Of a stretch of 62,853 nucleotides of DNA, positions 6,453 to 26,985 are shown piece after piece; position 1 is the first letter of the stretch; each line of letters begins with the position of its first letter. Location: assembly GCA_027021705.1 (NCBI GenBank), contig JALUTT010000018.1:1-62853 (forward strand). Direction: 5' to 3'. A program made the position numbers and the translations under genes. The DNA is from Anaerolineae bacterium (GTDB taxonomy: Bacteria; Chloroflexota; Anaerolineae; S140-20). The notes under the pieces were generated by a model. The model did no database searches and had not been told where the DNA came from. It saw only the letters and a program-made list of their open reading frames with translations.

Positions 6453-7994
6453 ATGAAAGCCATCGCTATGAAACTGAAATCGCTGGCTTGTTACCGTGCC
6501 ATCAAGGCGAGCCTGCGTGCCCGCTTCGCCTTGGGCCTCGCTTTGCCCATCTTTCTGATGATGGCCCTGTTGTCTCTGGTGCACTCTCAACGCGAACGTC
6601 AGCTCTTTGAAGCGCAGCTTCGGCTCTCTTCTTCACAACTGGGTGATATGTTGATGGGGAGCCTGCGCCATGCGATGCTCACGGACGACCGTGCAATGAT
6701 CGGCGAGATCCTGGACAGCGTCGCGCAGATGGACACCATCCAGCGGATCCAGATCATTGACCTGAATGGGGAGGTAAGGGTGGACAGCGCGGGTCGGGAT
6801 GTGGGGAAGCGACATCGCGAAGGTGACCTGGGGTGTAAGGAGTGTCACCGATTCCCTCCCGAAGACCGTCCTCGCACGGCGAAGCTCATCGTCGCCTCGA
6901 ATGTGCTGCGGATTTCCACGCCCATCGCCAACGGGCCGGAGTGTGTCAGGTGTCATTCGGAGAAAAACGGACACCTCGGTGTGTTGCTAGTTGATGCCTC
7001 CCTCGTGGATTTTGAGAGGCATCTGTGGAACGATCTGAAGATCGAGGCGGTGATCACCCTGATGATGACGGTGGTGATCATCCTGGTGGTCTATGCGCTG
7101 GTCCATCGCCTCGTTATACGCCGGATGGTTGCCCTGAGCAGACCCCTGGCGAGGTTGGCTGCAGGGGACTTCTCCACCAGGCTCCCGGTCTCGTCGGGTC
7201 CTCCCGACGAATTGGACCGGTTGGCGGGCACCTTGAACAGGATGGCCGAGGAGTTGGAGCGCCACGTCCGTGAGCAGGAGGAGCACCATCAGTTGCGGGA
7301 ACAGGCGATCATTGAAGAGCGCGAACGGATTGCCCGCGAGCTGCACGACGGAATCGCCCAGCTCCTCGGGTATGTCAATACCAAAGCGATGGCAGTACGG
7401 TTGATGCTTAAGAACCAGAAGCTTGAGGCAGCCGACCAACAACTGTTTCAGCTCGAGGAGGCAGCCCGCCGGCTCTTTGTGGATGTGCGGGAGGCGATCC
7501 TGGGGTTGAGGATTGCGGGGCGTAATAAGGGCGCTAGCCTGGCCGCTACTTTGGAGGAGTTCACCATCCAGTTCAGCCGACTAAGTGGTCTGCCCGTTCA
7601 GCTCACGCTGGCCCCGGCGGTCGAAGACCTCTCGCTTAAGGCCGAGGTCGAACTGCACTTGATACGCATCGTCCAGGAAGCATTGGCCAACGTTCGCAAA
7701 CACGCGATGGCTACCAATGCTCAGGTGCGCTTGGAGGTTCACGATGGGACGCTAGAGCTCGAGGTTAGCGATAACGGTGTCGGCTTCGACCCCAACCATA
7801 TCCAGGCGGACCGCCGGCCCCATTTCGGGCTGTGCACGATGCGCGAGCGAGCCGAGGCGATCGGGGCCGAGTTTCAACTGGACTCTAGGCCGGGCGTAGG
7901 GACCCGCATTGTCGTGCGCCTGCCGCTTGAGAAATCGTCCCAACGATCAATGGTGAAGGAGGATGGACACAATGCGCGTGCTGGTAGCCGATGA
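6453..7994 (+). CDS. HAMP/HisKA_3 sensor histidine kinase with a diheme-c extracytoplasmic domain
   Basis: 2 TM helices; CKECH (6834-6848) and CVRCH (6942-6956) between them; HAMP; ERERIARELHD; QEALANVRKH; DNGVGF. Start uncertain (6453 or 6468). Confidence 0.9.
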   Translation: MKAIAMKLKSLACYRAIKASLRARFALGLALPIFLMMALLSLVHSQRERQLFEAQLRLSSSQLGDMLMGSLRHAMLTDDRAMIGEILDSVAQMDTIQRIQIIDLNGEVRVDSAGRDVGKRHREGDLGCKECHRFPPEDRPRTAKLIVASNVLRISTPIANGPECVRCHSEKNGHLGVLLVDASLVDFERHLWNDLKIEAVITLMMTVVIILVVYALVHRLVIRRMVALSRPLARLAAGDFSTRLPVSSGPPDELDRLAGTLNRMAEELERHVREQEEHHQLREQAIIEERERIARELHDGIAQLLGYVNTKAMAVRLMLKNQKLEAADQQLFQLEEAARRLFVDVREAILGLRIAGRNKGASLAATLEEFTIQFSRLSGLPVQLTLAPAVEDLSLKAEVELHLIRIVQEALANVRKHAMATNAQVRLEVHDGTLELEVSDNGVGFDPNHIQADRRPHFGLCTMRERAEAIGAEFQLDSRPGVGTRIVVRLPLEKSSQRSMVKEDGHNARAGSR

Positions 7995-8634
7995 TCACTC
8001 GCTGTTCCGTGACGGCATTATCAGCTTGTTGGAGGCGGCAGGGTTTGAGGTCGTCGGGCAGGTCGGCGACGGCCAAGCAGCCGTTGAGGCGGTGCTGCGC
8101 CTGCGCCCGGACCTGGTGTTGATGGACATCACAATGCCCCGAATGAGCGGCTTGGAGGCGTTGCGCATCATCAAGCAGATGTTGCCTGAGACCCAGGTCG
8201 TGATGTTGACCGTCTCCGATGACGATGCTGACCTCTTCGAGGCCATCAGATCGGGGGCCAGCGGCTACCTGCTGAAGAGCCTAAATGCTGAGGAGTTCCT
8301 GACGATGTTGAACGGCCTGCAGCGGGGTGAGGCGGCGATGACCCGGAAGACGACGGCCCGCTTGATCCGAGGGCTCACCGAGTCGTCTTCCCGGCCTCAG
8401 CATGATAGGTCGGTGCAGCGCCTGACCGAACGGGAGATAGAGCTTCTCCGGCTGGTGGCCGAGGGGATGTCGAACAAAGCCATCGCCCACGCCCTCTCGG
8501 TCAGCGAGAACACGGTCAAGTACCATATGAAGAACATCCTTCAGAAGCTGAACGCCCAGAACCGGACGGAAGCGGTTACCCACGCCATTCGCGCTGGATT
8601 GCTCGATCTGACCTCTACAGATGATGGCAAGTAG
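7972..8634 (+). CDS. NarL/LuxR family response regulator
   Basis: VADDH, LMDITMP, GYLLK, LTEREIELL..GMSNKAIA; AGGAGG RBS upstream. Confidence 0.95.
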   Translation: MRVLVADDHSLFRDGIISLLEAAGFEVVGQVGDGQAAVEAVLRLRPDLVLMDITMPRMSGLEALRIIKQMLPETQVVMLTVSDDDADLFEAIRSGASGYLLKSLNAEEFLTMLNGLQRGEAAMTRKTTARLIRGLTESSSRPQHDRSVQRLTEREIELLRLVAEGMSNKAIAHALSVSENTVKYHMKNILQKLNAQNRTEAVTHAIRAGLLDLTSTDDGK

Positions 8635-8830
8635 CCTGAGTTCTTCCAGGGGGCGTGGGACGGCTTGTCGGGCCGTCCCGCTTTGCTTCTGTACGGGGTG
8701 CGTCCGAGGCGTGTTGCTTCTCTTTTCTCCTTCTTGGCTCCCTGCGCTCGCGGCTGTGTAACCCGATTCACGGTGCCTGTTGGGTAAGGGTTGATCGGTC
8801 ATTGCGCCGCGATGGTGGCGGGAACCCTCC

Positions 8831-8871
8831 TACCCATTTGGGTAAATCTCCCCCCTCGCCCACCTAGGTGG
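8831..8871. promoter_or_regulatory. Candidate NarL-family operator palindromes
   Basis: TACCCA-TT-TGGGTA (8831-8844) and CCACCTAGGTGG (8860-8871). Confidence 0.45.
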
Positions 8872-8926
8872 TTTTCCCCATTGGAATTCCTACCCGCACT
8901 GATGCTCATCCTTGGACGAATGGGTG

Positions 8927-9144: not shown

Positions 9145-9516
9145 GTGCGGATATGCGTTGCCATTCTGTCAAGCCATTCGCTTTTTGCCGAAGGCGTTGT
9201 TAACCGGCTGCGCCAATACTTGCACGATGTGGAATTTGCGATTGTAGACCCCCGGCGGCCGGACGTGATGTCCCAAATCGCTGCTGTCTGCCCCACAGTT
9301 GTACTCCTGGATGTCACGGATCCTGCAACAACTCGGTTTTGCCCTTTGAGCAAGCTTCTACTAACCTTTCCAGAGCTTAAGGTGATACGCTTGGATCAGC
9401 AGCATGAGCAGATTCAGGTGCTGACCAGCGAACGCCGACCAGCCGTGAGGATCCGTGATCTGGTCGAGGTCATCGCTGCCAACGACTCGTCAGGTCCCAA
9501 GCAGGCCCACGTGTGA
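9145..9516 (+). CDS. Stand-alone degenerate receiver (REC-like) domain protein
   Basis: GTG start after GAGGGG; VAILSSHSLFAEGV resembles VLVADDHSLFRDGI of the neighbouring regulator; VVLLD. Confidence 0.55.
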   Translation: MRICVAILSSHSLFAEGVVNRLRQYLHDVEFAIVDPRRPDVMSQIAAVCPTVVLLDVTDPATTRFCPLSKLLLTFPELKVIRLDQQHEQIQVLTSERRPAVRIRDLVEVIAANDSSGPKQAHV

Positions 9517-9549
9517 TAGGGCCATCCCCTAACGCCTGAAGGTGGCGCG

Positions 9550-9644: not shown

Positions 9645-10946
9645 ATGAGGATTGCTTCCCATCGGGATGGGAAGAACTCGATCTCGAAGGGCTGCCGATG
9701 GTTGGGAGTATTGGTTGTCCTGGTGGGGGTTCTGGGGTTGTTCGGATGGGCGTGGCGCGTTGAGGCAAGTGCGCCGTTCAGCCCGGTTTCGGTGGAAGGG
9801 GGTGTAGCCTCGGGGTCGGATCCTGATACCAACTGCCTGATGTGTCACTCGGACCCCGATTTCAAAGGCACCTTTCGGAATGGGGAATTGATCTCTCTGT
9901 ACGTTGACAAAGGAGAATATGAGCAATCGGTTCACGGGCCGGCCGGCTTGGAGTGTCTGGCGTGTCACACGAGCATCAGCCGCTACCCCCACCACGAGGA
10001 GGAGCAGGTCACCTGTGTGGCGTGCCACGGAGAGGCGGTGAGCAAGGGAAACATCACGTATGCGACCTTGCGGGTGCAGCTCCCCTACGCCGACCGTCGG
10101 GAGATGACCCTGACCATCAATGAGGCCTGCCGTTCCTGCCACGAGCGAGAGTTTGAGGTGGCCGGCGACAGCGCCCACGTGAGGGTGCTGCGGGGGGGGA
10201 ATCGGGAGGCCCCTGTCTGTGTGGATTGTCACGGCAGCCACGACATCACGCCGCCCGAGGAGCCCCGGGCCAAGATCTCTCACACCTGTGGGAAGTGCCA
10301 TCGTGCGGTCTACTCGACCTACCGCACCAGCATCCACGGGTCGGCTCTGGACCAGGAGTCAAACCCGGATGTTCCTACCTGTGTGGACTGCCACGGGGTG
10401 CACAGTGTCCGGGGACCGCGTGATGCTGCTTTCCGCAACGATAGCATCGCCATCTGCGGCGAGTGTCACGCCAACAAGGCTCTGATGGACAAGTACGGGA
10501 TCTCCACCAGCGTTTTCCAGACCTATCTGGATGATTTCCACGGTCGTACGGTGGATCTCTTCCGCCGCCAGCACCTGGGTATTCCCAGCAACAAAGCGGT
10601 CTGCTTCGATTGCCACGGCATCCACAATATCCGCCGGGTGGATGATCCCTTGTCCACAGTCTATCCGACCAACCTTCAGCACACCTGTCAGCAGTGCCAT
10701 ACCGATGCCAACATCCGGTTCCCACGGGCGTGGCTTGGTCACTACATTCCCACGCTGGAGGAGACGCCGGCGTTGTACGTCGTCAACCTGGCCTATCGCA
10801 TCTTGATCCCTTTGGTGATCGGTGGCTTCCTCCTCTATATTGGTTTGGATGCTCGCCGGCGGTGGCTTGACAGGCGTCAGATGGTACGCCAGGCCCTCGC
10901 TGAAGTGGAACTCGATGAATATGACTTCACCAACGATTTCTCCTAA
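9645..10946 (+). CDS. Decaheme c-type cytochrome with C-terminal TM helix (CbcL cytochrome c domain-like)
   Basis: Signal peptide; 10 CxxCH (CLMCH, CLACH, CVACH, CRSCH, CVDCH, CGKCH, CVDCH, CGECH, CFDCH, CQQCH); C-terminal TM. Confidence 0.9.
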   Translation: MRIASHRDGKNSISKGCRWLGVLVVLVGVLGLFGWAWRVEASAPFSPVSVEGGVASGSDPDTNCLMCHSDPDFKGTFRNGELISLYVDKGEYEQSVHGPAGLECLACHTSISRYPHHEEEQVTCVACHGEAVSKGNITYATLRVQLPYADRREMTLTINEACRSCHEREFEVAGDSAHVRVLRGGNREAPVCVDCHGSHDITPPEEPRAKISHTCGKCHRAVYSTYRTSIHGSALDQESNPDVPTCVDCHGVHSVRGPRDAAFRNDSIAICGECHANKALMDKYGISTSVFQTYLDDFHGRTVDLFRRQHLGIPSNKAVCFDCHGIHNIRRVDDPLSTVYPTNLQHTCQQCHTDANIRFPRAWLGHYIPTLEETPALYVVNLAYRILIPLVIGGFLLYIGLDARRRWLDRRQMVRQALAEVELDEYDFTNDFS

Positions 10947-11832
10947 CGCAGGTCACGACTACGAGGAAGAGCTGGCCTCGATCGAGCAGATCAAGCGGAA
11001 GGCACGGGCTCGCAAGTTACGAGCCGCTCGATCCCTTGCGGCCCGGATGCAGATTATGCCGGATGGCTCGCGGGTCTTCATCCGCTTCAACCGGACGGAG
11101 CGCTTTGAGCATCAGGTTCTCATCGTGACATTCACCACCCTGGCCGTGACAGGGTTGCTTCAGCGCTACAGCCAGCACCTCGTTGTTGGCTGGATCATCA
11201 ACCTCCTGGGTGGGGTGGAGACGATGCGCACGCTTCATCACTTGGCGGCCTTCGTCTTCATCCTAGAAGCGGTGTACCACACCTGGCGGATTCTGGTGAT
11301 CTGGTTTGTCAAGCGAGAACGCGGTGCGATGTGGCCCTCGCTGCGCGATTTTCGGGACCTGGTGCATATGGTGAAGTTCAACCTGGGTCTGGTGGATCAC
11401 CGACCGGAGTTTGACCGCTTCACCGTCGAGGAGAAGCTGGAGTATTGGGCATTGCTGTGGGGGGCACCCCTGATGATCATCACCGGACTGATGATGTGGT
11501 TCCCGGTCACCGTGACCTCGGTGTTGCCCGGTGATGCAATCCCGGTGGCTCGGGCCTTGCACGGTTGGGAAGCGATTTTGGCTACCCTGTCCATCCTGAT
11601 CTGGCACATGTACCATACCGTCATCAAGGAGCGAAACAGGAGCATCTTCACGGGCATTATGACGGAAAGGGAGATGCAGCACGCGCATCCCTTGGAGTAC
11701 CGGCGCATCCTGGCAGCCTACGCCTATCTTCAGAAGGTCGCTGCAGAGGAGATGCCCACCGAGGAAGGTCCAACCCATCCCCAAAAGATCCTGGCAGGGA
11801 CCGGTTATGAAGCGACCCAGGGTGTTGGATGA
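10915..11832 (+). CDS. Cytochrome b subunit (FdnI/HydC family; CbcL b-domain-like)
   Basis: RFNRTERFEH, LHH, EKLEYW, ITGLMMW, LHGWEAILA, WHMY; four TM helices with His ligands. Confidence 0.88.
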   Translation: MNMTSPTISPNAGHDYEEELASIEQIKRKARARKLRAARSLAARMQIMPDGSRVFIRFNRTERFEHQVLIVTFTTLAVTGLLQRYSQHLVVGWIINLLGGVETMRTLHHLAAFVFILEAVYHTWRILVIWFVKRERGAMWPSLRDFRDLVHMVKFNLGLVDHRPEFDRFTVEEKLEYWALLWGAPLMIITGLMMWFPVTVTSVLPGDAIPVARALHGWEAILATLSILIWHMYHTVIKERNRSIFTGIMTEREMQHAHPLEYRRILAAYAYLQKVAAEEMPTEEGPTHPQKILAGTGYEATQGVG

Positions 11833-13402
11833 ACAGGCCATCGCTGTAGATGAACAGATCATTGTGGACGAGCAGGCCATCGAGGAGTATGGCGAGGCGG
11901 CTTCCGTCCTTGTCGAGCCCCGGCCATACCGGCGTAGGCTCCGATGGCCGAAGGTGGTCATTGACCTCAGCCGTCCCAAGCATCGGCTGAACCTGCTCAT
12001 AGCCCTTGGGGTTCTGCTCCTGGTGGGCCTTGTCTTCCTGTTCAGCGGATACCAAGTCTACACCTACACCGAAAGCGCCGAGTTCTGTGGCACGGTCTGC
12101 CATCCGATGAAGTCGGAGTTCGTCCGTTACGAGCGCTCCCCGCACGCCAATGTCGAGTGCGCCAAGTGCCACATCGGGCCGGGGGCTTCCTTCTTCGTCA
12201 GATCCAAGATTGACGGGCTGAAGCAGGTGGTGGCCGTCCTGGCAAACAGCTACAGCCGCCCTATCAAGAGCCCTGTCTACAACCTGCGTCCTGCCCGGGA
12301 GACGTGTGAGGAGTGCCATACACCCACCCTCTTCCGCGACAACATCATTAAGACGATCGTCCACTACGACAACGATGAGGCCAACACACCGGTCCAGTCC
12401 ACCCTCATCCTAAAGATGGGAGGATGGCGGGAGAGCACAGGGGTCAGCGAAGGCATCCACTGGCACATTACCAACCCGGTCTACTACATCGCTGCCGATG
12501 AACAGCGACAGGTAATCCTGTGGGTGGGCGTAGAGCAGGAAGATGGGACGCTGAAGGAGTTCTATGCCCGAGATATGCTCAATATGGCTTGGACCGAGTT
12601 TGTGGAGGAAGCGCGTGCCAGGGGAGAGATCCGCAAGATGGATTGTATAGACTGCCATAACCGCACCGCCCACTTCATCCCTCCGCCAGAGGTGGTTGTG
12701 GATGAGGCCATCAGCGTAGGGAAGATCTCCAGGAAACTGCCCTACATTCGGGCCAAAGCGGTTGAGGTGCTGTCGGTAGAGTACGCCAGCGAGGCCGAGG
12801 CCTATGCTGCCATAGAAGGGCTTCTAGACTTCTACCGGGTAGGGTACCCGGAAGTGTACACCAAGTATCGCGCTGAGCTGGATGCGGCCATCGAGGAGCT
12901 CAAGCGGATCTACAGCAGCACCAACTTCCCCGATATGCGGTTGAGTTGGCGGACCAACCCCAACAACGAACGCCACACGCCTTTCCTGGGATGCTTCCGC
13001 TGCCACGATGGCAAACACGTCAACGTGGACAAATCGGGGAATGAGGTGGAGGTTATCAGCGTTAAGTGCAATCTTTGCCACACCGTCCCCATTGTCGGGC
13101 GGGGCGACGATATGCTCGTAGAGGCCCCGGTCATCGTCGGGTCTGTACCGCCCTCCCATTCAGACTTCCGATGGACCATCGAACACCGTTCGGTGACCGA
13201 GGAGGAGAGGCAGGAGTGCTACCAGTGCCACGGACAGGGCTTCTGTAGCAACAGCGTGTGTCACAATCTCTCGCATCCTCCGGATATGCTCTTCACCCAT
13301 GCCGAGGAGTATCGCAAGACGGGGAATCAGGTCTGCTACACCTGTCACCAGGATATTCTGTGTAGCCGTTGCCATCCAGGCGGCATAGTGTCCAATCCTT
13401 AG
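11807..13402 (+). CDS. imcH: ImcH-like NapC/NirT family membrane multiheme cytochrome c
   Basis: TES..FCGTVCH, SPHA.VEC..CH.GPGA, NLRPARETCEECH, GIHWHI, MDCIDCHNR, GCFRCHDGKH match recalled Geobacter ImcH motifs; 8 CxxCH + CX3CH + CX4CH. Confidence 0.8.
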   Translation: MKRPRVLDEQAIAVDEQIIVDEQAIEEYGEAASVLVEPRPYRRRLRWPKVVIDLSRPKHRLNLLIALGVLLLVGLVFLFSGYQVYTYTESAEFCGTVCHPMKSEFVRYERSPHANVECAKCHIGPGASFFVRSKIDGLKQVVAVLANSYSRPIKSPVYNLRPARETCEECHTPTLFRDNIIKTIVHYDNDEANTPVQSTLILKMGGWRESTGVSEGIHWHITNPVYYIAADEQRQVILWVGVEQEDGTLKEFYARDMLNMAWTEFVEEARARGEIRKMDCIDCHNRTAHFIPPPEVVVDEAISVGKISRKLPYIRAKAVEVLSVEYASEAEAYAAIEGLLDFYRVGYPEVYTKYRAELDAAIEELKRIYSSTNFPDMRLSWRTNPNNERHTPFLGCFRCHDGKHVNVDKSGNEVEVISVKCNLCHTVPIVGRGDDMLVEAPVIVGSVPPSHSDFRWTIEHRSVTEEERQECYQCHGQGFCSNSVCHNLSHPPDMLFTHAEEYRKTGNQVCYTCHQDILCSRCHPGGIVSNP

Positions 13403-13425: not shown

Positions 13426-14388
13426 ATGCCTACGCTCAACGGGTCCACGCAGAAAGGCCGAAGCTTTAACACGCAAGAGATCCAGCGGGCCATCTGGATC
13501 GTGCTGACGGCTCTGATTGTCAGTGTCATACTCTTCGGCGGCTACTACTACTGGGATCGCTATGTTCGCCTGAAGGACAAGTCGCCGATGGAGATGGACA
13601 TCGAGCGGCTGGAGCAGGCGATCCGTGAAGATCCTCAGAATCCCGATGCCCGGGTCGCCCTGGCCGAGTATTACCTGCGCAGCGGGATGCCCCAGAAGGC
13701 CCTGGAGCAGGCGAATCAGGTGTTGAAGGTTTACCCGGAGCACGAGGGAGCGTTGCTCATCGCAGGGATTGCCTACGTTCGCCTCAACCAGCCCGAGGCT
13801 TCCCTGGCCCCCCTGGAGAAGTTCGTGGAACTGCGCAAGGATCGCCCGATGGCCGGTGTGGATACTGCCCTGGAGACGGCGTACTACTTCCTCGGCGAGA
13901 GCTACGTCAAGTTGAACCGGCCTGAGGATGCGATCCCTGTGCTGGAAGCAGCGCTGAAGATCACTCCGACGGATGCCGATGCGCTCTATCAGGCGGGTGT
14001 GGCTTATCAGGCTACCGGTGAGTTGGAGACGGCTCTGGAGCGCTATCATAGGGCTGTGCGCCTCGTCCCCGACTTCCTCGAGGCCTACCAAGGCATGGTC
14101 GAGAGCTATTCTGCCTTAAACCAGCCGGATTACGTGGTGTACGCTCAGGGGATGGAAGCTTTCTGTCGGAAGGATTATCAGACGGCTCAGGACTACCTGG
14201 AACAGGCCACCGAGGCGCTGCCAGACTTTGCCCCGGCCTTTCTGGGCCTGGGGTTGACCTATGAGCAGATGGGAGATTTAGAAGCCGCGCTGGCAGCCGT
14301 GGAGCGGGCCCTGGAGTTGCAGCCCAATGACTTCGCCATCCTGCAGGCGCGTGGTCGTATCCAAGCCGCACTGGACTCAAAGAAGTGA
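13426..14388 (+). CDS. Membrane-anchored TPR protein
   Basis: N-terminal TM helix followed by many TPR repeats (e.g. AYYFLGESY, ALYQAGVAY, AFLGLGLTY). Confidence 0.9.
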   Translation: MPTLNGSTQKGRSFNTQEIQRAIWIVLTALIVSVILFGGYYYWDRYVRLKDKSPMEMDIERLEQAIREDPQNPDARVALAEYYLRSGMPQKALEQANQVLKVYPEHEGALLIAGIAYVRLNQPEASLAPLEKFVELRKDRPMAGVDTALETAYYFLGESYVKLNRPEDAIPVLEAALKITPTDADALYQAGVAYQATGELETALERYHRAVRLVPDFLEAYQGMVESYSALNQPDYVVYAQGMEAFCRKDYQTAQDYLEQATEALPDFAPAFLGLGLTYEQMGDLEAALAAVERALELQPNDFAILQARGRIQAALDSKK

Positions 14389-14394
14389 GCGCAT

Positions 14395-15606
14395 ATGTCG
14401 AACATAGACGCCGGGAACCAGGTTTCTGAGCACGACCTCAGCCTTATCGAAGAAGAAGAGCGGGCGGAGAAACGACGCCGGTGGTTGCTCCTGCTGCTCT
14501 TGCTGCTGCTGACGTTGCTGGCTTGTGTGCTCTTGCTCTTCATCCGCTATCTGCGGCAGCCGGAGCCGTTGCCCGAGATGATCCCGCTGCCGGTGGACGT
14601 GAACTACCCGCCCCATTACTTGTTCTCGATCTACGGAGTGGACAAGCCGGTCGGTGTGGCCTACTCGCTGAGGAATGACCGCATCTATGTCGCGGAAACC
14701 GGCGGCAAACGTCTGGTGAAGATCTTCGACCGGGATGGCAACCCGCTGGGCTCCTTCGCGCCTCCACGCACGATGCCCGGCGAGCGGTCGCCGGTCTACC
14801 TGGCTGTTGACGGAGCCGGCCGTGTCTTCGTCACCGATCGCCTTCAGCACGCGATATTCGTATACGACGAGAACGGGACCTTTCTAGATACCATCCTGGG
14901 GCCGGACCTGACGCTGAGCGAATATGTGCTCAAGCACGTGAACAACCTGCGACCCGATGCCACCTTCGCCTACAACCAGTTCGAGCACGTGGTCTACTAC
15001 AAAAGCCCCGGAGAACCGGAGCGGACGTTGCCCACACCCGAGCCGGCGATGTGGGCTCCGCTGGGGATCCGATTCGATCGCACCGGTAGGCTGCTGTTCA
15101 CGGATGTGAGACAGGAACGCAATGCTGTGTACTTGATCTCGGCCGATGCCTTCTCGCCCTCCTCTTGGCGGAATTTCGATCCGCCTGTGATCTCCTTCGG
15201 TTCGACGGGGCAGGGAGATGGGCAGTTCCTCTTCCCCAACTCGGCGGTCGCCGATTCCCAGGGACGGATCTACGTCACCGATGGGAACAATGGCCGCATC
15301 TCTGTGTGGGATGAGAAGGGGCAGTTCCTGTTCCACTTCGGTGGAGGTTCTGGTGAAGGTGCGCTCAGCCTGCCTCGCGGTGCGGCCATAGACGAGCGGG
15401 ATCGGCTTTACGTGGTGGATGCTGTGGGGCAGAACGTGAAGGTCTACGATGTTTCGGGACCGGAGCCTGACTTCCTCTTCGCCTTCGGCGACTGGGGAAT
15501 GGGTGATGGGCAGTTCAACTATCCCAACGACATCGCTTTGGATCGCTACGGGCGATTGTACATCGCCGATCGAGAGAACAATCGTATCCAGGTTTGGTCT
15601 TACTAA
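14395..15606 (+). CDS. Membrane-anchored NHL-repeat beta-propeller protein
   Basis: Poly-Leu TM; GDGQFLFP..GRIYVTD, LPRGAAID..LYVVD, GDGQFNYPNDIA..LYIADRENNRIQ. Confidence 0.9.
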   Translation: MSNIDAGNQVSEHDLSLIEEEERAEKRRRWLLLLLLLLLTLLACVLLLFIRYLRQPEPLPEMIPLPVDVNYPPHYLFSIYGVDKPVGVAYSLRNDRIYVAETGGKRLVKIFDRDGNPLGSFAPPRTMPGERSPVYLAVDGAGRVFVTDRLQHAIFVYDENGTFLDTILGPDLTLSEYVLKHVNNLRPDATFAYNQFEHVVYYKSPGEPERTLPTPEPAMWAPLGIRFDRTGRLLFTDVRQERNAVYLISADAFSPSSWRNFDPPVISFGSTGQGDGQFLFPNSAVADSQGRIYVTDGNNGRISVWDEKGQFLFHFGGGSGEGALSLPRGAAIDERDRLYVVDAVGQNVKVYDVSGPEPDFLFAFGDWGMGDGQFNYPNDIALDRYGRLYIADRENNRIQVWSY

Positions 15607-16869: not shown

Positions 16870-17928
16870 ATGAAACTCAGGATCGCCCTCGTCATCGGCT
16901 TGCTAGCGCTCCTTGCTCTGCCAACCGGCTTGGCCCTGGCTGACAATGGCCCCCACGGGGGGTATACGGCGACCACCGACGCCTGCGCCGGTTGTCACCG
17001 AGCGCACACCGCTCCTGCGGCCCGGCTGCTGTTGGATACCGTACCCAACCTCTGCTTCACCTGCCACGGCAGCACGGCCACCGGTGCAGATACCAACGTT
17101 GAGGATGGCATCTACGTGGATCGCGACTTCGAAGCCGAAGCGCCTGCCGAGGGCGACGTCAACCGGGGGTTGAAGGGTGGTGGCTTCGTCTATGCCTTGA
17201 TGGATACGGACTTCGACGGAGCAGCTACCAGCTCCCCTGTGACGTCTTCCCACCTGAACGATGGAAGCACCGGTACGGCCTGGGGTAACGGCAACATCGG
17301 CTCCGGACCTGGGGCGGCGAACTTCAGCCTGTCGTGCACTTCGTGCCACGACCCTCACGGTGGCGCCAGCACCACTGGCGGTGCAACCTACCGCCTGCTG
17401 CGGCCAATACCGATCAACTCAGGGGCAGCTATCGGCGTCAACGTCACCGATGAGACCGACAAGATCTACACGGTCGCTGACGCCAATAACAAGTACTTCG
17501 GAGAAGGCTACCCGTACACGCCTGGAGACACCTGGTCCTCGATGGACCAGCAGGAGCGGGAGATGTCCGACTGGTGTGCGCAGTGCCACACCCGCTATCT
17601 GGCCGATTCCGGCAGCGGGAGCACGAGCTCAGGCGATGACATCTTCATGTATCGCCACATGTCCGAGGGCACGCCCAGCGCCACCTGCAACGACTGCCAC
17701 ATTGACTACGGCTCTCCCCCCACCCTTCGGACTACCGTTGGCCCCGAGTGGCATCACAACGTAGAATGCATGACCTGCCACGTGGCCCACGGGACATCCG
17801 CAACGATGACGGGGTATGCCGCCTACGTCGAGTGGCCGGATGGGTCAACGACGCCCGATGGGGACGCTCGCAGCTCCCTGCTGCGCGGCGATGGCCGCGG
17901 GGTGTGCCAGCGCTGCCACGGCAAGTAG
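16870..17928 (+). CDS. OmcS-like heptaheme cytochrome c
   Basis: Signal peptide ending ALA; 7 CxxCH; MSDWCAQCH; paralog of 15788-16783; GGAGG RBS. Confidence 0.8.
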   Translation: MKLRIALVIGLLALLALPTGLALADNGPHGGYTATTDACAGCHRAHTAPAARLLLDTVPNLCFTCHGSTATGADTNVEDGIYVDRDFEAEAPAEGDVNRGLKGGGFVYALMDTDFDGAATSSPVTSSHLNDGSTGTAWGNGNIGSGPGAANFSLSCTSCHDPHGGASTTGGATYRLLRPIPINSGAAIGVNVTDETDKIYTVADANNKYFGEGYPYTPGDTWSSMDQQEREMSDWCAQCHTRYLADSGSGSTSSGDDIFMYRHMSEGTPSATCNDCHIDYGSPPTLRTTVGPEWHHNVECMTCHVAHGTSATMTGYAAYVEWPDGSTTPDGDARSSLLRGDGRGVCQRCHGK

Positions 17929-18128: not shown

Positions 18129-18159
18129 GAGGCCCGCCTTGGGTACAAGGAGTAGTCCC

Positions 18160-19203
18160 GTGAACCGGTCTCATCGCAGATCGTTGACGATCTCCTTCTT
18201 GGCCTTGCTCATCACTGCGCTCTTCCTGGGCTCTGGCGCGTCCGTTGCACGGGCCGACAACGGTCCTCATGGAGACTACACAGCGACGACCGATGCCTGC
18301 GCCGGTTGTCATCGGGCACACACGGCCGGCGCTCCTCGTCTGCTGCTCGACGACGTGCCCAATCTCTGTTACACCTGCCACGGCAGCGGCGGCAACGGCG
18401 CCGATACCAACGTCGTGGATGGCATCTATCTGGAGAGGGACCTGGACACCGAAGACCCCGCTGAGGGCATCGCTGGGCGGGGCTTGAAAGGTGGCGGTTT
18501 TGTCAACGCGCTGATGGATACGGATTGGGATGGCGCTGCCACCAGTGCACCGACCACGTCAAGCCACCTGGTAGACGGCAGCACCGGCACGGCGTGGGGC
18601 AATGGGGATATTGGCTCCGGCCCCGGGGCGACCATCCCCCTCTCGTGCACCTCTTGTCACGACCCGCACGGCAGGGCCAGTACCACCGGAGGGCCTACCT
18701 ACCGCCTGCTCCGCGCCATCCCCGTCAACTCGGGTGCGACCACGGGGGTAGATGTCGAAGATGAGGTGGATAAGGTCTACACCGTCTCCGACACCGCCCA
18801 GAAGTCCGGCAACCAGTATTTCGGCGAGGATTACGGAACCCAGGGGGACCAGCTCTCCGAGTGGTGTTCCCAGTGTCATACCCGCTACCTGGCCCCCGGT
18901 GGCAGTGGGAGCACCGACTCCGGCGATCCGATCTTCGCCTATCGCCACCTGACCCAAGGATCCCCCAGTTGTAGCCTCTGCCACGACGTCCACGGCGGCA
19001 CACTGCCGACCGGCGGGCCGATGTTCAGCCACGACGTGACTTGTGTGACCTGTCACGTTGCCCACGGCACCTCTGCCAGTATGGGAGGGTACGCCGAAAA
19101 CGTTGAATGGCCCGATGGTGCGACCGACCCCTCGGGGAACAACCGGAGTTCTCTTCTCCGGGTGGACAACCGGGGTACCTGCCAGTTGTGTCACGGGAAG
19201 TGA
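18160..19203 (+). CDS. OmcS-like heptaheme cytochrome c
   Basis: GTG start after AAGGAG; signal ending ARA; 7 CxxCH; LSEWCSQCH; close paralog of 16870-17928. Confidence 0.8.
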   Translation: MNRSHRRSLTISFLALLITALFLGSGASVARADNGPHGDYTATTDACAGCHRAHTAGAPRLLLDDVPNLCYTCHGSGGNGADTNVVDGIYLERDLDTEDPAEGIAGRGLKGGGFVNALMDTDWDGAATSAPTTSSHLVDGSTGTAWGNGDIGSGPGATIPLSCTSCHDPHGRASTTGGPTYRLLRAIPVNSGATTGVDVEDEVDKVYTVSDTAQKSGNQYFGEDYGTQGDQLSEWCSQCHTRYLAPGGSGSTDSGDPIFAYRHLTQGSPSCSLCHDVHGGTLPTGGPMFSHDVTCVTCHVAHGTSASMGGYAENVEWPDGATDPSGNNRSSLLRVDNRGTCQLCHGK

Positions 19204-19243: not shown

Positions 19244-22200
19244 TTGAAACGCAACGATGGGAACGGACGGACCAGCCTCAGGGAAAAGATGATGAAGCAT
19301 CCTCGCAACGGCACTCCATGGCAACCACGTACTCACAACAAGGAGCGGATCCGGCTTCTCAGAACGCTCCGCCGGAGCCACGCTCTCACCCGAATGGCCG
19401 TCCTCTCCCTGACCATCCTGGGACTGTACTTCTCCCTCCTCGTCGGTGGGGTGCCGACCATTGGGGCCGAGCAGGCCCCCACGGAGACCCCGACCCCTGA
19501 CATGGGTACGGTGACGGGGGTGCCCACCAGCGCTCCCTTGGACGAGGAAGACGGCACGACTACCGCCACGCCGACGGTGACCTCCACGCCGTTCATCACC
19601 CCGACGGCGACGCCGGCCTGGACCGCCACACCTCCGGTGACCCCCACGGAGGTCATCACGCCGACGGTGGTGTCTTCGACCCCTGTCCTCCCGACGGTCA
19701 CGCCCACCGAGCCCTTTACCCTGACGGTCCCCCCCTCAACGCCGGACACCCCAACCCCTGTGCCGACGGAGCCTATTACCCTGACGGCAACCCCTTGGCC
19801 GGTGGAATCGCCGTCGGCGACTCCAGTCTCCAGCCCCTCCGTTCCGGTGACCTCGACGGCGACGCCCACCGAGACGGCTGAGCCCACAGCATCGGTCACG
19901 CCAACGGTCCCGCCTGCTCCGTCGGCCACGCCGACGATCACCCCTACGCCTGCGGTCACCGTCACCGTGACCGTGACGCCCACGGAGACCACGGTGCCGG
20001 AGGTCTCGCCTACCGTCACGGTCACCCCGATCGTTACGCCAACGCCGGTGGCGTTCGAGGGTAGCTACGTGCCGGATGAGGTGCTCGTCCGCTTCCTGCC
20101 GTTGCCGCTCCCAGGGTTTTCGGCCACGACAGCGGCGGCCCTCGCCGAGACTCATAAGATCGAGGTGGAAGGCACTCTGAGCCGCCTGGGCGTGTGGGTG
20201 ATGAAGGTCCCACCGGGCCAAGTCGAGCAGGTTGTCTCGGACCTCCGGCAGGATCCGAGGGTCCTGTTCGCTGAACCTAACTACATCGCCCGAGCCTACC
20301 TCACCCCCGACGATCCCAGTTGGCCGCTGCAGTCCTACCTGTCGAACATCCAGGCCCCTCAGGCGTGGGATGTAACGACGGGATCGCCGGAGGTGGTTAT
20401 CGCGGTAGTGGACACCGGTGTGGACCTCACCCATCCCGACTTGGTGAACAAGATCTGGCACAACCTGGGGGAGATGGGGCTGGACGCCGAGGGCAACGAC
20501 CGGCGCACCAACGGCGTGGACGACGACGGCAACGGCTACGTGGACGACTGGGTGGGGTGGAACACCGTTGCCGGCACGGGTGATGTGCAGGATGACCACG
20601 GTCACGGCACCTATGTGGCCGGCGTGGCCGCTGCCGATACCAACAATGGGCAGGGGATCGCCGGGGTCTCCTGGGGGGCGCGGATTATGCCGGTAAAGGT
20701 GCTGGATAGCACCGGTTTCGGTACCTATGCTCAAGTGGCTGCGGGCATCATCTACGCCACCGACCAAGGGGCGCGGATCATCAATCTGAGCCTCGGGGGC
20801 ACGGAGCCCAGCGCCCTGCTCGAGGCTGCCATCGGGTATGCTGCCGCCCACGGCGTCACCGTGATCGCGGCCACCGGCGATTCGGGGACCTCGGGCGTGA
20901 GCTATCCGGCGGCCTATCCCAGCGTGATTGCCGTCGGGGCGACCGATGGTAACAATCAGATCGCCCCCTTCTCCACCTTCGGCGACGCGGTGGACCTGGT
21001 AGCCCCTGGGGTGGACGTCTACTCCACCTATCCGGGCGGTTACGCCCAGTTCTCGGGTACCTCGGTGGCTGCGGCCCACGTCTCGGGGGTGGCTGCCCTC
21101 TTGGCCAGCCTGCCGGCCTTCGATACCCCGGACAAGATCCGGGCGGCGCTGGAGGCGACGGCCCTCGACTTGGGGGAGCCGGGTTGGGATCCCTATTACG
21201 GGTTTGGTTTGGTGCAGGCCTACGATGCATTGACCCAGCCGCCCCCGGTTGGCCCGACGCCCACGCCCACCCCCACGGCGACGCCGGGGCCATCGCCAAC
21301 CCCGACGGCGACGCCGACGCGAGGGCCGACGCCCACCCCGTCGGGGGGTGGTGGTGTACGCGCTTTGGTCACCGAAGAGCTGTGGGCCACGGCACAGGAC
21401 TGTGATTATCCCATCACCGATCCGGCGAACAGCATTGACCTGGCCTTCAACGATCTGGTGGCCTCCTGCACGGGGGATTTTGGGAGGGACAGGACGAGTT
21501 GGACCTATACCGCCTTCCAAGATACGACGCTGGCTACCATCGTGATGGTAACGCTGGACGTGCGCTTCTACATGACGGGCTGGGTGGATGATCGCATTGA
21601 TCTGGAGATCTTCAACGGGGATCGCTGGTACCGGCTGGCCCGTTTCGAAGGTGGGGAGGAAACGCCGCCGGGGACGTTGACCACCCTTTCCTACGATGTC
21701 TCATCGTGGTTCACCACACCCGCCGAGGTCAATGCGGCTCAGTTGCGCTTCCGAGGGCGCAGGAGGAACGGCGGTACGGATACCATCACCATCTACCTGG
21801 ATGAGGCTCGCCTCAATGCCAGTGATGTGATTCCCACACCCACGCCGGCGCCGCCCCTACCGACGCCGACATCCCCGCCACCGGCGCCCACCGACGTGCC
21901 TATTGCCGGGGATCCTCACGTGGATTACAGCCCGACGACCGACAGTTGCGCGGCCTGCCACCGTTCCCACACCGCCTACGGCATGGTGCTGCGCCAGGCG
22001 TGGCCGGAAGAGGATCTCTGCTTCGGCTGCCATACCGATGGCGGCACGGGCACCAACGTCCAGCCGGCCTTCACCAGCTACACCAATACTTCCACCCGCA
22101 TCTTCAAGCACGACATCGCCGCCACCAATGGTGTCCATCGGATCGGGCAGACCACCGGTGCCGACTTCGGAGGAACCAGCCGGCACGTGGAGTGTGAGGA

Positions 22201-23065
22201 CTGCCACGAGCCCCACGAGGCCACCCGTGGTCCGTCCGATGCCCCGATGCTCCAGCGGGAGATGAACTACGCCTCGGGTGTGGATCCGGTCTGGACAGGG
22301 CCCGGTGCGCCGACCTCCTACGTCTGGCTGCAGCAGGCCGAGCGGGAGTATCAGGTCTGCTTCAAGTGCCACTCCAGCTTCACCACCCTCCCCACCTACG
22401 TACCTGACGGCTGGGATGGTAGCCAGTATGTGGCCGATGGCCTGCGCAAGCTGACCAGCACCGATCCCAACCAGGTGCTGGACAGCCGGGATATGGCCCA
22501 GGAGTTCAACCCTTACAACGCCAGCTTCCATCCGGTGGTGGCCCAAGGTCGGAACCAGTCCATCCCGGCGGGGAGTTTCGTCACCGGCTGGTCGCAGACC
22601 AGCATGGTCTACTGCACCGACTGCCACAGCAGTGCCGACCCCACTCAGGGGGATGGTCCTCACGGTTCTCCTCTGTTGCACCTCCTTACCGGCAATGGTG
22701 GGCAGACGAACTACGTCACAGCACCGGGGGGCTGGGTGACCATCACCAGCGATTGGGTCTGCTTCAAGTGCCACCGGTACGAAACCTACGTTTCAGGCAC
22801 CGACCCTTCCACCAACACCAACTTCCGCAGGGGCAACCGTAACCTGCACGAATTGCACTCCGACCGACGTAACGTGCCCGATGCCTCGTGCTATGCCTGC
22901 CACGACTCCCACGGCAGCGAGCAACTGCACCTGATCAACTTCGACGCGAGCTGGGGTGGGGGCATCACTTTCCTGAATGGCCGGAACAGCCAGACAGCCT
23001 GGACCGGCAACAGCTGCTACCTCGTCTGTCACGGCAGAGATCACTCCAACATCACGTATCCCTGA
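19244..23065 (+). CDS. S8 subtilase / octaheme cytochrome c fusion with Pro/Thr linkers
   Basis: Hydrophobic N-terminal segment; ~200 aa P/T tract; prodomain (YVPDEVLVRF..AEPNY); VVDTG, HGT, SGTS triad; C-terminal 7 CxxCH + CYLVCH. Start uncertain. Confidence 0.85.
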   Translation: MKRNDGNGRTSLREKMMKHPRNGTPWQPRTHNKERIRLLRTLRRSHALTRMAVLSLTILGLYFSLLVGGVPTIGAEQAPTETPTPDMGTVTGVPTSAPLDEEDGTTTATPTVTSTPFITPTATPAWTATPPVTPTEVITPTVVSSTPVLPTVTPTEPFTLTVPPSTPDTPTPVPTEPITLTATPWPVESPSATPVSSPSVPVTSTATPTETAEPTASVTPTVPPAPSATPTITPTPAVTVTVTVTPTETTVPEVSPTVTVTPIVTPTPVAFEGSYVPDEVLVRFLPLPLPGFSATTAAALAETHKIEVEGTLSRLGVWVMKVPPGQVEQVVSDLRQDPRVLFAEPNYIARAYLTPDDPSWPLQSYLSNIQAPQAWDVTTGSPEVVIAVVDTGVDLTHPDLVNKIWHNLGEMGLDAEGNDRRTNGVDDDGNGYVDDWVGWNTVAGTGDVQDDHGHGTYVAGVAAADTNNGQGIAGVSWGARIMPVKVLDSTGFGTYAQVAAGIIYATDQGARIINLSLGGTEPSALLEAAIGYAAAHGVTVIAATGDSGTSGVSYPAAYPSVIAVGATDGNNQIAPFSTFGDAVDLVAPGVDVYSTYPGGYAQFSGTSVAAAHVSGVAALLASLPAFDTPDKIRAALEATALDLGEPGWDPYYGFGLVQAYDALTQPPPVGPTPTPTPTATPGPSPTPTATPTRGPTPTPSGGGGVRALVTEELWATAQDCDYPITDPANSIDLAFNDLVASCTGDFGRDRTSWTYTAFQDTTLATIVMVTLDVRFYMTGWVDDRIDLEIFNGDRWYRLARFEGGEETPPGTLTTLSYDVSSWFTTPAEVNAAQLRFRGRRRNGGTDTITIYLDEARLNASDVIPTPTPAPPLPTPTSPPPAPTDVPIAGDPHVDYSPTTDSCAACHRSHTAYGMVLRQAWPEEDLCFGCHTDGGTGTNVQPAFTSYTNTSTRIFKHDIAATNGVHRIGQTTGADFGGTSRHVECEDCHEPHEATRGPSDAPMLQREMNYASGVDPVWTGPGAPTSYVWLQQAEREYQVCFKCHSSFTTLPTYVPDGWDGSQYVADGLRKLTSTDPNQVLDSRDMAQEFNPYNASFHPVVAQGRNQSIPAGSFVTGWSQTSMVYCTDCHSSADPTQGDGPHGSPLLHLLTGNGGQTNYVTAPGGWVTITSDWVCFKCHRYETYVSGTDPSTNTNFRRGNRNLHELHSDRRNVPDASCYACHDSHGSEQLHLINFDASWGGGITFLNGRNSQTAWTGNSCYLVCHGRDHSNITYP

Positions 23066-23223: not shown

Positions 23224-26200
23224 ATGGTGGTTCCTATGGTGACTTCTGCGGTTTTCCTCACGCCTCGACGGCACATCCGGTCTCGGGGGAGGAGGCAGAT
23301 CAGACAGGGGCTGGGTCGGGGATTGCACCTTCTCGCTCGGGCCATCCTGTTGATGGCGCTGGTGACGACGATCATCCCGGTTCCAGGGATCTATGCGGCC
23401 ACCTTCGACGTGAATGACCCAAATGATGCCGGGGATACCTCTCCGGGCGACGGAATCTGTGACAGCGACGAGGCTTCCCCCGGCCCCCAGTGTACGTTGC
23501 GCGCCGCCATCGAAGAGGCCAACGCCCTGCCGGGTCCTGATACCATCAATCTGGCTGCGGCCGGCCCCTACTACCTGACCGAAGGCGTGCTCACGGTCAC
23601 CAGCGAGATCACCCTGAACGGCAACGGAGAGACCATCAGTGCAGGTGGGCTCTCCCGTATCTTTTTGGTGGAAGGGGATGGCGTGCTCTCGTTGGACGGC
23701 GTGACCCTTCGGGATGGTGTGGGGGATGAAGGTGGCGCGATCCACGTTCGACCGGGGGGAACGCTGTACATCTCGAACAGCGCCATCGTCAACAACGCGG
23801 CGGTCAACACGGAGTCCAGCTCTGGCGGCGGCATCAACAACTGGGGGGGCACGGTCACCATCGTCAACACCACCATCTCCGGCAACCGGGCCAACGCCGG
23901 CGGTGGTGGCATTGCGAACCTGACCGCTTACGAGGGGGGCAGCTTTGTTTACGGCACGATCACCCTGACCCACGTGACGATCACCGACAACATCGCCGAT
24001 TTCGACGGGTCCGATGGCAACAGTCACGATGGTGGGGGGATCTTCACCTTTGGGATGCTCAATGTCGGGAGTTCCATCATCGCCGGCAATGTGGACAATA
24101 GCCCCGCCTTAGGCACGGTCTACCCCGATTGTGTCAACTGGTATTACCTCACTACCCAGCAGTACAACCTGATCGGGGATAACACCGGCTGTGATGTACC
24201 GTACCCCGCCGACGACCCGACCAGCTACTTCCCGCCGGGCACCCCCAATGACAACCACGACTTCGTCGGTACCGGCGACGCGCCCCTAGACCCGCTGCTC
24301 GGCGATCTGACCGGCAACCCGGCCTATCACCCGCCCCTGGCCGGCAGCCTGGCCATAGACCAGATCCCCGCGGATGCCTGCTCGGTCACCAGAGATCAGA
24401 TCGGGACGCCTCGCCCCCAGGGGACGGCCTGCGACATCGGTGCTGTGGAGGTCGCCTCCCAGGTGGACCTGAGCATCACCAAGACGGTCACCCCCACCCT
24501 CCCCGTCGCGCCGGGCCAGAGGGTCACCTACACCCTCACCTTCAGCAACCAGGGCGAGGGCATCGCCCCTGAGGTCGTCATCACCGACATCGTTCCGGTG
24601 ACCCTGACCCACGTCAGCGTCATCAGCAGCGGCGTGACCGTGACGGATACCGGGGTGAGGCCGGGCTTTGTGTGGGGCGTGGAGGACCTCTCGCCGGGCG
24701 AGGGCGGGATCATCACCATCAGCGGTCGGATCAGCGAGAGCCTGATTGCCGCGACCATCTTCACCAACACCGCCGTCATCGCTACCAGCGCTCAGGATTC
24801 TGACGCCGACAACAACGAGGCCGCTGTGGGGGTGACGGTGATCCCCCACGAGTCCGAGTGGTCCGACTTTTGCCTTCTCCAGCGGATGGAGATCACGGGC
24901 ATCGGGATGGGAGATCGTTACGGTGCCATCAACCCCCAGACTATCTCCCTGTCCGATCCGGATGGGGTGAATTGGCTGTTGGTCCAGGTCGCCGGACGAC
25001 GAGCCTTTGGGGCACCGATCCCGGACCAGGTGGTCCTGACTCCCGATCGGCCCCCGTCGTTCACCCTCTACCAGCCTCACCGCAGCAGCCCACACGGCTA
25101 CACCTTTGAGGCGAACCTGCGCCCGACGAACCAGATCACGGCCTTCGTCAGCAACGTGGGGGAGGACTACAAGACGCCTCGGGGCCTGGTGCTGTACAGC
25201 AAGCGGGCTACTGTGGACCGCTGGACCTCCGTCGGCAGGACCGCCAACAAGTTCATCTACCGAGGATGGAAGGGCTCCCACACTGAGGTGCTGACCTTCC
25301 CGCCGTTGCAGAGCGCGACGGACCTCTTCGCCACCGCCGTGGTCATTGACAACGATGATGATGCCCGCCCGATTGTGGTCACGGCGGAGGCCGGAGGGGT
25401 GACCGACACCGTGAGCATCCTCGGTTCCTCGGACGGTCCGGGTCTGAACATCGTTCGCCTGGCCCTCCCCCAGGTACCCACCGGAACCCAGCAGATCAGC
25501 ATCACGGTCCAGTCGCCGACCAGCAACGGCGATTCGATGGTCCTGACGGGGGTAGACGTTAGCTTCTCGTGCGAGAGGCCAACCGGTGCGGTGGTGCGCG
25601 TCGAGCCCTCACCGGCGACGATCCCCCTGGGGGCGACCCGCTTGTTGACCGTGACGGTGGACCCCGGCTCGGCCCAGGTCAACGGTGTGCAGATCCACGG
25701 TCAGGTGGACCCCGCATACCTGCACCTGGTGGATGTCCGGCCCAGTGGGACCCTGACGGTGGAGCTGGACCCCGTGGCCTTTGACCCCACGACGGGGGAG
25801 TTCCGCTACGGGGCGAGCCTCCTCGACGGCGTCATCACCGAGCCCTTCCCGGTGCTGACCCTTGAGGTCCAGGCGGTAGCTCTCACCGATGGAACCTGGG
25901 TTAAGTTCCTCGACGAGCCCCCGCCGACCGACGTCAGCGGTCCCGACGGCAGCGTGATGAGCCAGGCCCAAGATGGGTTGGTCATCGTGACGCAGGCTCC
26001 TGTCCTCCGTGGATCGGTGGATATGCAGGGCCGTCCTCCCAAGCCTGCACCCCCCTGGGCGATCCCGTTGACGGTTTGGCTCTCACCGCCGGGGGATACG
26101 ACCCCGATCTACACCGCGACCGTCACCACCAACCAATATGGCGAATTCACCCTTGCCCTGGGCGATCTCCCCTCTGGTCCGTACGATGTCCGGTTGAAGG

Positions 26201-26985
26201 GCAACCATACCTTGCGCAACCTGGCTCCGGCGGTCCCTCTGGAGGTGGGGGATAACCGCTACTTCTTCGGCACGCTGTTGGAAGGGGATGTCGAGACGGT
26301 AGGCACCTTCAACTGGGTATGGTGGCCCGATGTCTGGGTGATGGCCGGCTCCTTTGGCCGATGTCGAGGGTCGCCGGGCTTCGTGGCCAACGCGGACCTG
26401 GACGAGAGTGGATGCGTGTGGTTACCCGACTTTGGCCTGCTGGCGGGCAACTTCGGCAAGGCCGGAGACATCGTCGTCACTCCCACGGTCACCTCCCAAG
26501 CGGTGTTGCGCCCGGCGGACGGTGGTGGACCGTGGTTGCTGTTCAATGCCGAAGAGGTGCAGGTTGCGGTCGGTGAGGTGGTGACCCTATCCCTCGATCT
26601 GGACCCCGAAGATCGGCCGACCAACGGTGTGATGGCCCAACTGCGCTTCGACCCCGATCTGGTCGAGGTGATGGACGTCACACTCACCGACCGCCTGCCC
26701 TTGGTCTTGATGGAACCGGTGGTGGACGACGAGCAGGGGACGGTGCGCTTTGCGGCGGGGGTTCTTGGTCGGACCCTCACCGAGCGGTTCACCGTTGCTC
26801 GCCTCACGGTAAAGGTGAAGGCAGCGACCACCGGGACGGCCATCGCGTTGGTGGATCTGCCCACCGCGACCGACGTCAGCGGTCCCGAGGGGCGCATTCA
26901 AGTGAAATGGAAAGGGGTGACGCTCAGGACGGAGGCCCAGGCATCGCCGGAGCATCTCCTCTACCTGCCCCTTGTGACCCGGTAG
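23224..26985 (+). CDS. CSLREA / choice-of-anchor Q / DUF11 / cohesin / dockerin-like surface protein
   Basis: CTLRAAIEEAN; GGGI beta-helix repeats; DQIGTPRPQGTACDIGAVE; DLSITK..VTYTLTFSN; two cohesin-like domains; ADLDESG.V...DF; C-terminal YLPLVTR. Confidence 0.8.
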   Translation: MVVPMVTSAVFLTPRRHIRSRGRRQIRQGLGRGLHLLARAILLMALVTTIIPVPGIYAATFDVNDPNDAGDTSPGDGICDSDEASPGPQCTLRAAIEEANALPGPDTINLAAAGPYYLTEGVLTVTSEITLNGNGETISAGGLSRIFLVEGDGVLSLDGVTLRDGVGDEGGAIHVRPGGTLYISNSAIVNNAAVNTESSSGGGINNWGGTVTIVNTTISGNRANAGGGGIANLTAYEGGSFVYGTITLTHVTITDNIADFDGSDGNSHDGGGIFTFGMLNVGSSIIAGNVDNSPALGTVYPDCVNWYYLTTQQYNLIGDNTGCDVPYPADDPTSYFPPGTPNDNHDFVGTGDAPLDPLLGDLTGNPAYHPPLAGSLAIDQIPADACSVTRDQIGTPRPQGTACDIGAVEVASQVDLSITKTVTPTLPVAPGQRVTYTLTFSNQGEGIAPEVVITDIVPVTLTHVSVISSGVTVTDTGVRPGFVWGVEDLSPGEGGIITISGRISESLIAATIFTNTAVIATSAQDSDADNNEAAVGVTVIPHESEWSDFCLLQRMEITGIGMGDRYGAINPQTISLSDPDGVNWLLVQVAGRRAFGAPIPDQVVLTPDRPPSFTLYQPHRSSPHGYTFEANLRPTNQITAFVSNVGEDYKTPRGLVLYSKRATVDRWTSVGRTANKFIYRGWKGSHTEVLTFPPLQSATDLFATAVVIDNDDDARPIVVTAEAGGVTDTVSILGSSDGPGLNIVRLALPQVPTGTQQISITVQSPTSNGDSMVLTGVDVSFSCERPTGAVVRVEPSPATIPLGATRLLTVTVDPGSAQVNGVQIHGQVDPAYLHLVDVRPSGTLTVELDPVAFDPTTGEFRYGASLLDGVITEPFPVLTLEVQAVALTDGTWVKFLDEPPPTDVSGPDGSVMSQAQDGLVIVTQAPVLRGSVDMQGRPPKPAPPWAIPLTVWLSPPGDTTPIYTATVTTNQYGEFTLALGDLPSGPYDVRLKGNHTLRNLAPAVPLEVGDNRYFFGTLLEGDVETVGTFNWVWWPDVWVMAGSFGRCRGSPGFVANADLDESGCVWLPDFGLLAGNFGKAGDIVVTPTVTSQAVLRPADGGGPWLLFNAEEVQVAVGEVVTLSLDLDPEDRPTNGVMAQLRFDPDLVEVMDVTLTDRLPLVLMEPVVDDEQGTVRFAAGVLGRTLTERFTVARLTVKVKAATTGTAIALVDLPTATDVSGPEGRIQVKWKGVTLRTEAQASPEHLLYLPLVTR

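Follow-up and report, generated by a model that had tools for sequence, protein, structure and literature searches.

A conserved multihaem cytochrome cluster in a single-membrane Anaerolineae bacterium and its likeness to porin-less electron transfer systems

Introduction

The gene cluster analysed here lies at positions 6453-26985 of a 62,853-nucleotide stretch of an Anaerolineae genome assembly (GCA_027021705.1, contig JALUTT010000018.1; the whole stretch is called the window), and its closest described counterparts come from Geobacter, Thermincola and Ardenticatena. The closest characterised membrane modules, CbcL, ImcH and ImdcA, are described as quinol oxidases (PMC7911101, PMC12307469, PMC9129911), CbcL and ImcH being tuned to different potentials in Geobacter (PMC12307469). 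Outside the cell, OmcS has companion genes in an osc operon (described by Shen et al. 2025, according to PMC13194489 and PMC12307469), and the extracellular octahaem OmcZ is tied to a subtilisin-like protease, OzpA (PMC12307469, PMC9473688). For Thermincola potens and T. ferriacetica a porin-less route of extracellular electron transfer (EET) has been proposed, with ImdcA (TherJR_1117/Tfer_0070), CwcA (TherJR_1122/Tfer_0075), PdcA and OcwA; ImdcA is membrane-anchored, has ten haems and lies five locus numbers from the hexahaem CwcA, which is proposed to stack through the wall in a polymer that is itself only a model (PMC7911101). Compared by description, the present system resembles that of Thermincola in its single membrane, in the lack of a porin and in a membrane-anchored decahaem protein encoded a few genes ahead of a hexahaem OmcS homologue that is secreted. 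It differs in its OmcS-type paralogues, which number three and include two with a seventh haem, and in having also a CbcL-like pair, a sensor kinase with two haems and the fusion of a subtilase to an octahaem domain.

Within Chloroflexota, both anodic and cathodic EET have been shown for the monoderm Ardenticatena maritima 110S (PMC5808234), which by description shares with our host the phylum, the single membrane and a surface seven-haem cytochrome (ARMA_0580, 430 aa); the available text of that paper discusses neither OmcS nor a gene cluster. Anaerolineales genomes have been reported to encode large multihaem proteins without porin complexes, BLASTP finding no OmcS homologue there (PMC7399161), and the multihaem richness of Anaerolineae has been noted (bioRxiv 10.1101/2021.08.23.457424); as far as the available parts of these two sources go, EET is suspected and no mechanism is named. 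Chloroflexi are unmentioned in the accessible part of PMC10954620.

An earlier note on this DNA knew of no such pathway characterised in the phylum. Our literature search likewise found no account of such a cluster or fusion in Chloroflexota, yet the claim has to be narrowed in view of the EET of A. maritima, the porin-less, multihaem-rich Anaerolineales and the design proposed for Thermincola. Here we report that the cluster is real, intact and conserved. Gene content, homologies, conserved ligands, synteny, envelope markers and maturation genes together lead us to propose, with a probability of roughly 0.6, that it encodes a regulated accessory pathway carrying respiratory electrons from the quinone pool out through a single-membrane envelope.

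Results

Thirteen open reading frames (ORFs) follow one another on the plus strand between 6453 and 26985; the shared strand and position had been recognised before, with the number of genes put at 14. They hold 50 haem-binding motifs, in agreement with an earlier estimate, namely 47 CxxCH and three extended versions (CGTVCH, CSNSVCH, CYLVCH), distributed over the sensor kinase (2), a membrane decahaem protein (10), a NapC-type protein (10), three secreted cytochromes (6, 7 and 7) and the protease fusion (8). Judged from alignments, these motifs are not due to chance, because homologues keep the counts: eight in 118 of the best 120 octahaem homologues, six in 114 of 120 homologues of cytochrome A and ten in all 38 full-length orthologues of the NapC-type protein.

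The secreted cytochromes comprise hexahaem A (15788-16783), heptahaem B (16870-17928) and heptahaem C (18160-19203, with a GTG start inferred from an AAGGAG site in an ORF that opens at 18139). B is 37% identical to A and 66% identical to C, and has an OmcS-type core with one motif inserted between core haems 4 and 5; relatives of A number 1,771 among 7,999 scored candidates. A single sequence does not reach OmcS, and the homology emerges only with a profile of 127 sequences, which matches OmcS residues 7-406 (E 8.6e-20) with six CxxCH motifs collinear along the whole chain; the window cytochromes also match the OmcS fold, moderately, with 27% identity over the structural alignment. Six distal histidines (mature H5, H22, H102, H137, H209 and H262) are conserved in 125-127 of the 127 rows and in all three paralogues, four being aligned directly with OmcS histidines and two assigned by inspection, in agreement with bis-His ligation of every core haem as in the OmcS family. 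The histidine of a CxxCHxxH motif, aligning with the OmcS histidine after haem 1, is kept in 125 of 127 members, and we take H22 to be the candidate equivalent of OmcS His16, the intersubunit ligand. The idea of three OmcS-like secreted cytochromes is thus supported by profile, fold and ligands. With Geobacter sulfurreducens OmcS (PDB 6EF8/6NEF) they share the collinear six-haem chain, the distal histidines, a signal peptide, adjacent paralogues and companion genes, but they are about 100 residues shorter and distant in sequence, belong to a monoderm host, and are encoded in one operon with putative quinol oxidases and with no PpcA-type shuttle in the cluster. All three end two residues after the last motif, with no C-terminal extension.

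Immediately upstream lie genes for a membrane-anchored TPR protein (13426-14388) and a membrane-anchored NHL beta-propeller (14395-15606), the latter being the only one of its kind at high similarity in the host genome. We compared 75 loci whose genomes are named, of which 69 bear the title Chloroflexota, four uncultured bacterium and two Eubacteriales, and counted synteny in the 45 with 7 kb or more of upstream sequence. Synteny, which the earlier note had proposed to check, is conserved: TPR and NHL genes are present in 44 of these 45; the NapC-type gene occurs in 33 and the decahaem/cytochrome b pair in 24, at least one of these membrane modules in 40, and both in 17.

Do the secreted cytochromes build a wire at all? 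Conceivably they stay single or form small oligomers bound to the wall, and serve to store electrons or to reduce soluble acceptors such as humics, quinones or chelated metals. The moderate fold match would allow this, three paralogues together with the long covalent haem chains of relatives could represent fixed-length adaptors, and the conductivity of Ardenticatena filaments is described as too low to measure (PMC5808234). The near-invariance of the CxxCHxxH histidine and of the dedicated TPR and NHL companions speaks against such an arrangement, which we consider unlikely.

Relatives vary the theme. At the same cluster position, six loci of other Anaerolineae (L015, L028, L061, L067, L071, L072) carry giant repeats of OmcS-like haem units with 24-35 haems per ORF, and representatives reach 42 haems. 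Small one-haem and five-haem genes, absent from the window, stand among the secreted cytochromes at L011, L015, L017, L036 and L046, and genes resembling haem-synthesis enzymes by their N-termini directly follow the cytochrome cluster at L060 (15133-19212).

Downstream of cytochrome C, a single continuous frame (19289-23065) encodes a secreted protein composed of a Pro/Thr stalk, an I9-like prodomain, an S8 subtilase, a domain of about 160 residues and an octahaem domain. The frame is equally continuous in relatives, which upholds the protease-cytochrome fusion that had been noticed, and the catalytic triad is intact (D390/H454/S607, numbered from 19244). Relatives of the octahaem domain number 893 among 5,689 candidates of 671-2137 residues. 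Of the 120 best homologues, 77 carry an S8 domain and 43 have no protease; Asp-His-Ser is kept in 75 of the 77, the other two alignments being truncated, and the oxyanion Asn position is Asp in the window protein and in 21 of the 77. Haems 1-4 of the octahaem domain are homologous to the A/B/C family, including an N-terminal PH and the CxxCHxxH motif (hhalign 99.5%), and for haems 5-8 hhalign detected no homology to that family. At two loci (L022, L046) the octahaem domain comes immediately after an OmcS-like unit, both being part of a single chain that also bears an S8 domain; ten other ORFs extend an OmcS-type heptahaem protein to chains of 13-19 haems, and the 17-haem chains end in a tail that weakly matches the octahaem C-terminus. 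The domain was found in 8 of 300 sampled genomes of the class, three of these matches covering its first half only. The likeness to OmcZ/OzpA is that of a subtilisin-like protease linked to an extracellular octahaem cytochrome, but here the two form one polypeptide, the haem domain starts with OmcS-type haems 1-4, and A, B and C lack a C-terminal extension for cleavage. Because 43 of 120 homologues do without the protease and the secreted cytochromes have no cleavable extension, the fusion protease is not a simple equivalent of OzpA; self-release, or the clearing of surface protein, is our guess at its role.

How might electrons enter? Two membrane modules stand between regulator and cytochromes. 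The first is split over two genes: a decahaem c cytochrome with one helix at each end (9645-10946) and an overlapping gene just downstream (10915-11832, start inferred) for an FdnI/HydC-type dihaem cytochrome b, which matches PF01292 over and TIGR01583 below cut-off and has, by inspection, four histidines in membrane segments. Of 30 related loci, one (L012, 66-72% identical) has both fused in a single frame of 753 codons, the layout of CbcL. CbcL, with nine c haems and a dihaem b (PMC9129911), likewise combines a multihaem c part with an FdnI/HydC-type b part holding four histidines, but the window unit has ten c haems and two genes; the predicted CbcL-like architecture is thus present, though not as a single unit. 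The pair probably acts like CbcL, as a quinol oxidoreductase, without being a canonical member of that family.

The second module is a NapC/NirT-type decahaem protein (11807-13402; PF03264 over cut-off) with one membrane helix, an N-terminus similar to NrfH (2j7a_C, E 2.7e-4) and CxxxCHxM at haem 1. It shares with ImcH the NapC/NirT-type N-terminal quinol-oxidising domain but has ten haems and one helix, as against the seven haems and three helices of ImcH. The label ImcH-like therefore proves loose beyond this domain; set against descriptions of both proteins, the module fits ImdcA of Thermincola better.

The host can be placed by a valS fragment at the window end, which shares 78-86% identity with the nearest relatives that lie outside its own sequence cluster; among the 120 matches listed, the seven that bear a taxon all belong to Anaerolineae, Caldilineae, Anaerolineales or Chloroflexi, and the suspected membership of Chloroflexota is hereby confirmed. 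Its genome is 94.9% complete with 4.5% contamination, and at this completeness has no match to the outer-membrane markers PF11854 (MtrB/PioB), PF01103 (Omp85) or PF03331 (LpxC). Among 14 control genomes, Omp85 was positive in seven, LpxC in four and MtrB/PioB in one, the last below cut-off, so that the PF11854 control gave no positive over cut-off. The cluster itself contains no porin gene. By its envelope markers the host is a single-membrane bacterium, as had been expected from the missing MtrB/OmbB-type porin. Haem maturation genes, on whose presence the earlier note had made its reading depend, are encoded elsewhere: ccmA, B, C, E, F, G and H with ccdA on contig C170, and hemC on C176. Of the three findings by which the earlier note said its reading would fall (a diderm host with porins elsewhere, cytochromes without the OmcS fold, missing haem c maturation genes), none was obtained. 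The genome encodes menA, and menB, mqnA and mqnC were not found at 94.9% completeness; the quinone step would therefore depend on salvage of a naphthoate precursor.

The host genome also encodes acetyl-CoA synthase, NiFe hydrogenases and two haem-copper oxidases. With this equipment, the same conduit might run mainly inward, from Fe(II) minerals, a cathode or a syntrophic partner to the quinone pool, for CO2 fixation or for reduction of O2 or NO. Multihaem chains are reversible and Ardenticatena performs transfer in both directions (PMC5808234), but the closest characterised membrane modules are those described as quinol oxidases, and we regard a mainly inward flow as improbable, more so than cytochromes that form no wire.

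Elsewhere in the genome, which has 29 ORFs with at least two CxxCH, a further CbcL-like c/b module is accompanied by another NapC-type protein and by an octahaem lipoprotein on a collagen stalk (C170:56596-61948, L079), and another c/b module lies at C37:17790-22631 (L080); no OmcS-type genes were found at these two loci. At two others (C162:14716-19023, L081; C22:29711-32326, L082), class III-like cytochromes with 16 and 12 haems are encoded, as is a protein of 11-12 haems whose MtrC/MtrF-like matches are weak. A match to a NiFe hydrogenase large subunit (C27:25262-26815) contains two internal TGA codons and is possibly a selenocysteine enzyme or a broken gene.

The cluster opens with a membrane sensor histidine kinase (6453-7994; HAMP, HisKA_3, HATPase) that has two CxxCH in its external sensor domain, both retained in all ten relatives aligning over that domain; 19 other matches align in the kinase core only and have no CxxCH, four of them being cut by a contig edge. 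A NarL/LuxR-family response regulator follows (7963-8634; Pfam Response_reg and GerE, with NCBIfam NarL best but below cut-off). Behind it, a candidate operator (8830-8895) pairs the palindrome TACCCA-TT-TGGGTA (8831-8844) with a second half-site, CTACCC, at 8890. CTACCC/GGGTAG occurs downstream of the regulator in 16 of 16 spacers examined, often as a palindrome, with 31 sites against 1.7 +/- 1.3 in 200 shuffles and three in 55 control spacers that together are twice as long; because the motif was selected after inspection and several loci are close kin, this enrichment is overstated. The motif resembles the NarL heptamer and is most simply read as a putative site of the cluster's own NarL-type regulator. 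A small protein without a DNA-binding domain (9145-9516, start inferred, ORF opening at 9013) is receiver-like by inspection, has no Pfam or NCBIfam match, and has a homologue in the same position in 12 of the 75 loci.

The cluster family is patchy, being found in 16 of 300 sampled genomes of the class (about 5%), 12 of 300 of the phylum, 3 of 40 relatives and none of three of the same family. GC content at third codon positions is lower in the front eight genes (0.61-0.81) than in six flanking genes (0.86-0.91), and this suggests that the cluster was acquired by transfer. One could go further and see a decaying or silent island, given this drop and the absence from the three same-family genomes, but the 13 frames are intact, and ligands, catalytic triad and operator are conserved; we deem a relic highly improbable.

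The last ORF (23224-26985), earlier counted in the cluster as an adhesin, is indeed there, but encodes a large generic surface protein (CSLREA-like, choice-of-anchor Q, DUF11, YLPLV.R tail) that finds no match in any of the 75 related loci and is better called a neighbour. A GH5/GH39-like secreted protein (27111-29300) shares its tail, and by a loose pattern up to 55 host ORFs have YLPLV.R-like tails, possibly a Chloroflexota sorting signal. Farther off, the window has minimal nucleotidyltransferase genes (1502-2047, 49063-49935, 51234-52120, 57011-57544), some with HEPN partners of toxin-antitoxin type, in a glycosyltransferase region, and a low-GC GmrSD-type restriction nuclease gene (34451-36052).

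Discussion

How might such a cluster carry electrons across a single-membrane envelope? We envision a scenario whereby the dihaem kinase reads the redox state outside and the NarL-type regulator switches the operon through the CTACCC sites. Quinol would then be oxidised by two modules, the split CbcL-like pair and the NapC-type decahaem protein, perhaps tuned to different potentials, which would feed haem chains lying along the outside of the membrane and pass electrons directly to the OmcS-type subunits. TPR and NHL proteins may serve as assembly factors that fold, anchor or export these subunits, and A, B and C may stack head to tail, with haem 6 of one subunit facing haem 1 of its neighbour, as a conduit crossing the wall. 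Most likely, the subtilase-octahaem protein would dock on the free end as the terminal unit, with a mineral, humic matter, an electrode or a partner cell as the acceptor.

The order of stacking in OmcS is what points to this last step: an octahaem domain docked on the end of a stack offers no OmcS-type tail to a next subunit and might thus be a tip or terminator. A broader conjecture would be that Anaerolineae build OmcS-type wires from several subunit types and cap them with a dedicated tip, a stalked octahaem protein with an OmcS docking head and a different tail, whose own subtilase releases it or clears a protein surface layer. We hold this to be doubtful as a whole.

Sediments, aquifers, digesters and anode biofilms commonly harbour Anaerolineae, and the cluster gives specific candidate genes and a marker set for EET. 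It also represents a compact system for studying the assembly and termination of OmcS-type wires and the way in which they receive electrons in the absence of a periplasmic shuttle, and its protease-octahaem fusion joins two themes of wire biogenesis, OmcS companions and OmcZ-type proteolysis, in one operon. If the tip reading were true, this would be the first defined terminator or tip for an OmcS-class wire, and a monoderm phylum that abounds in sediments and digesters would have an operon complete from sensor to tip.

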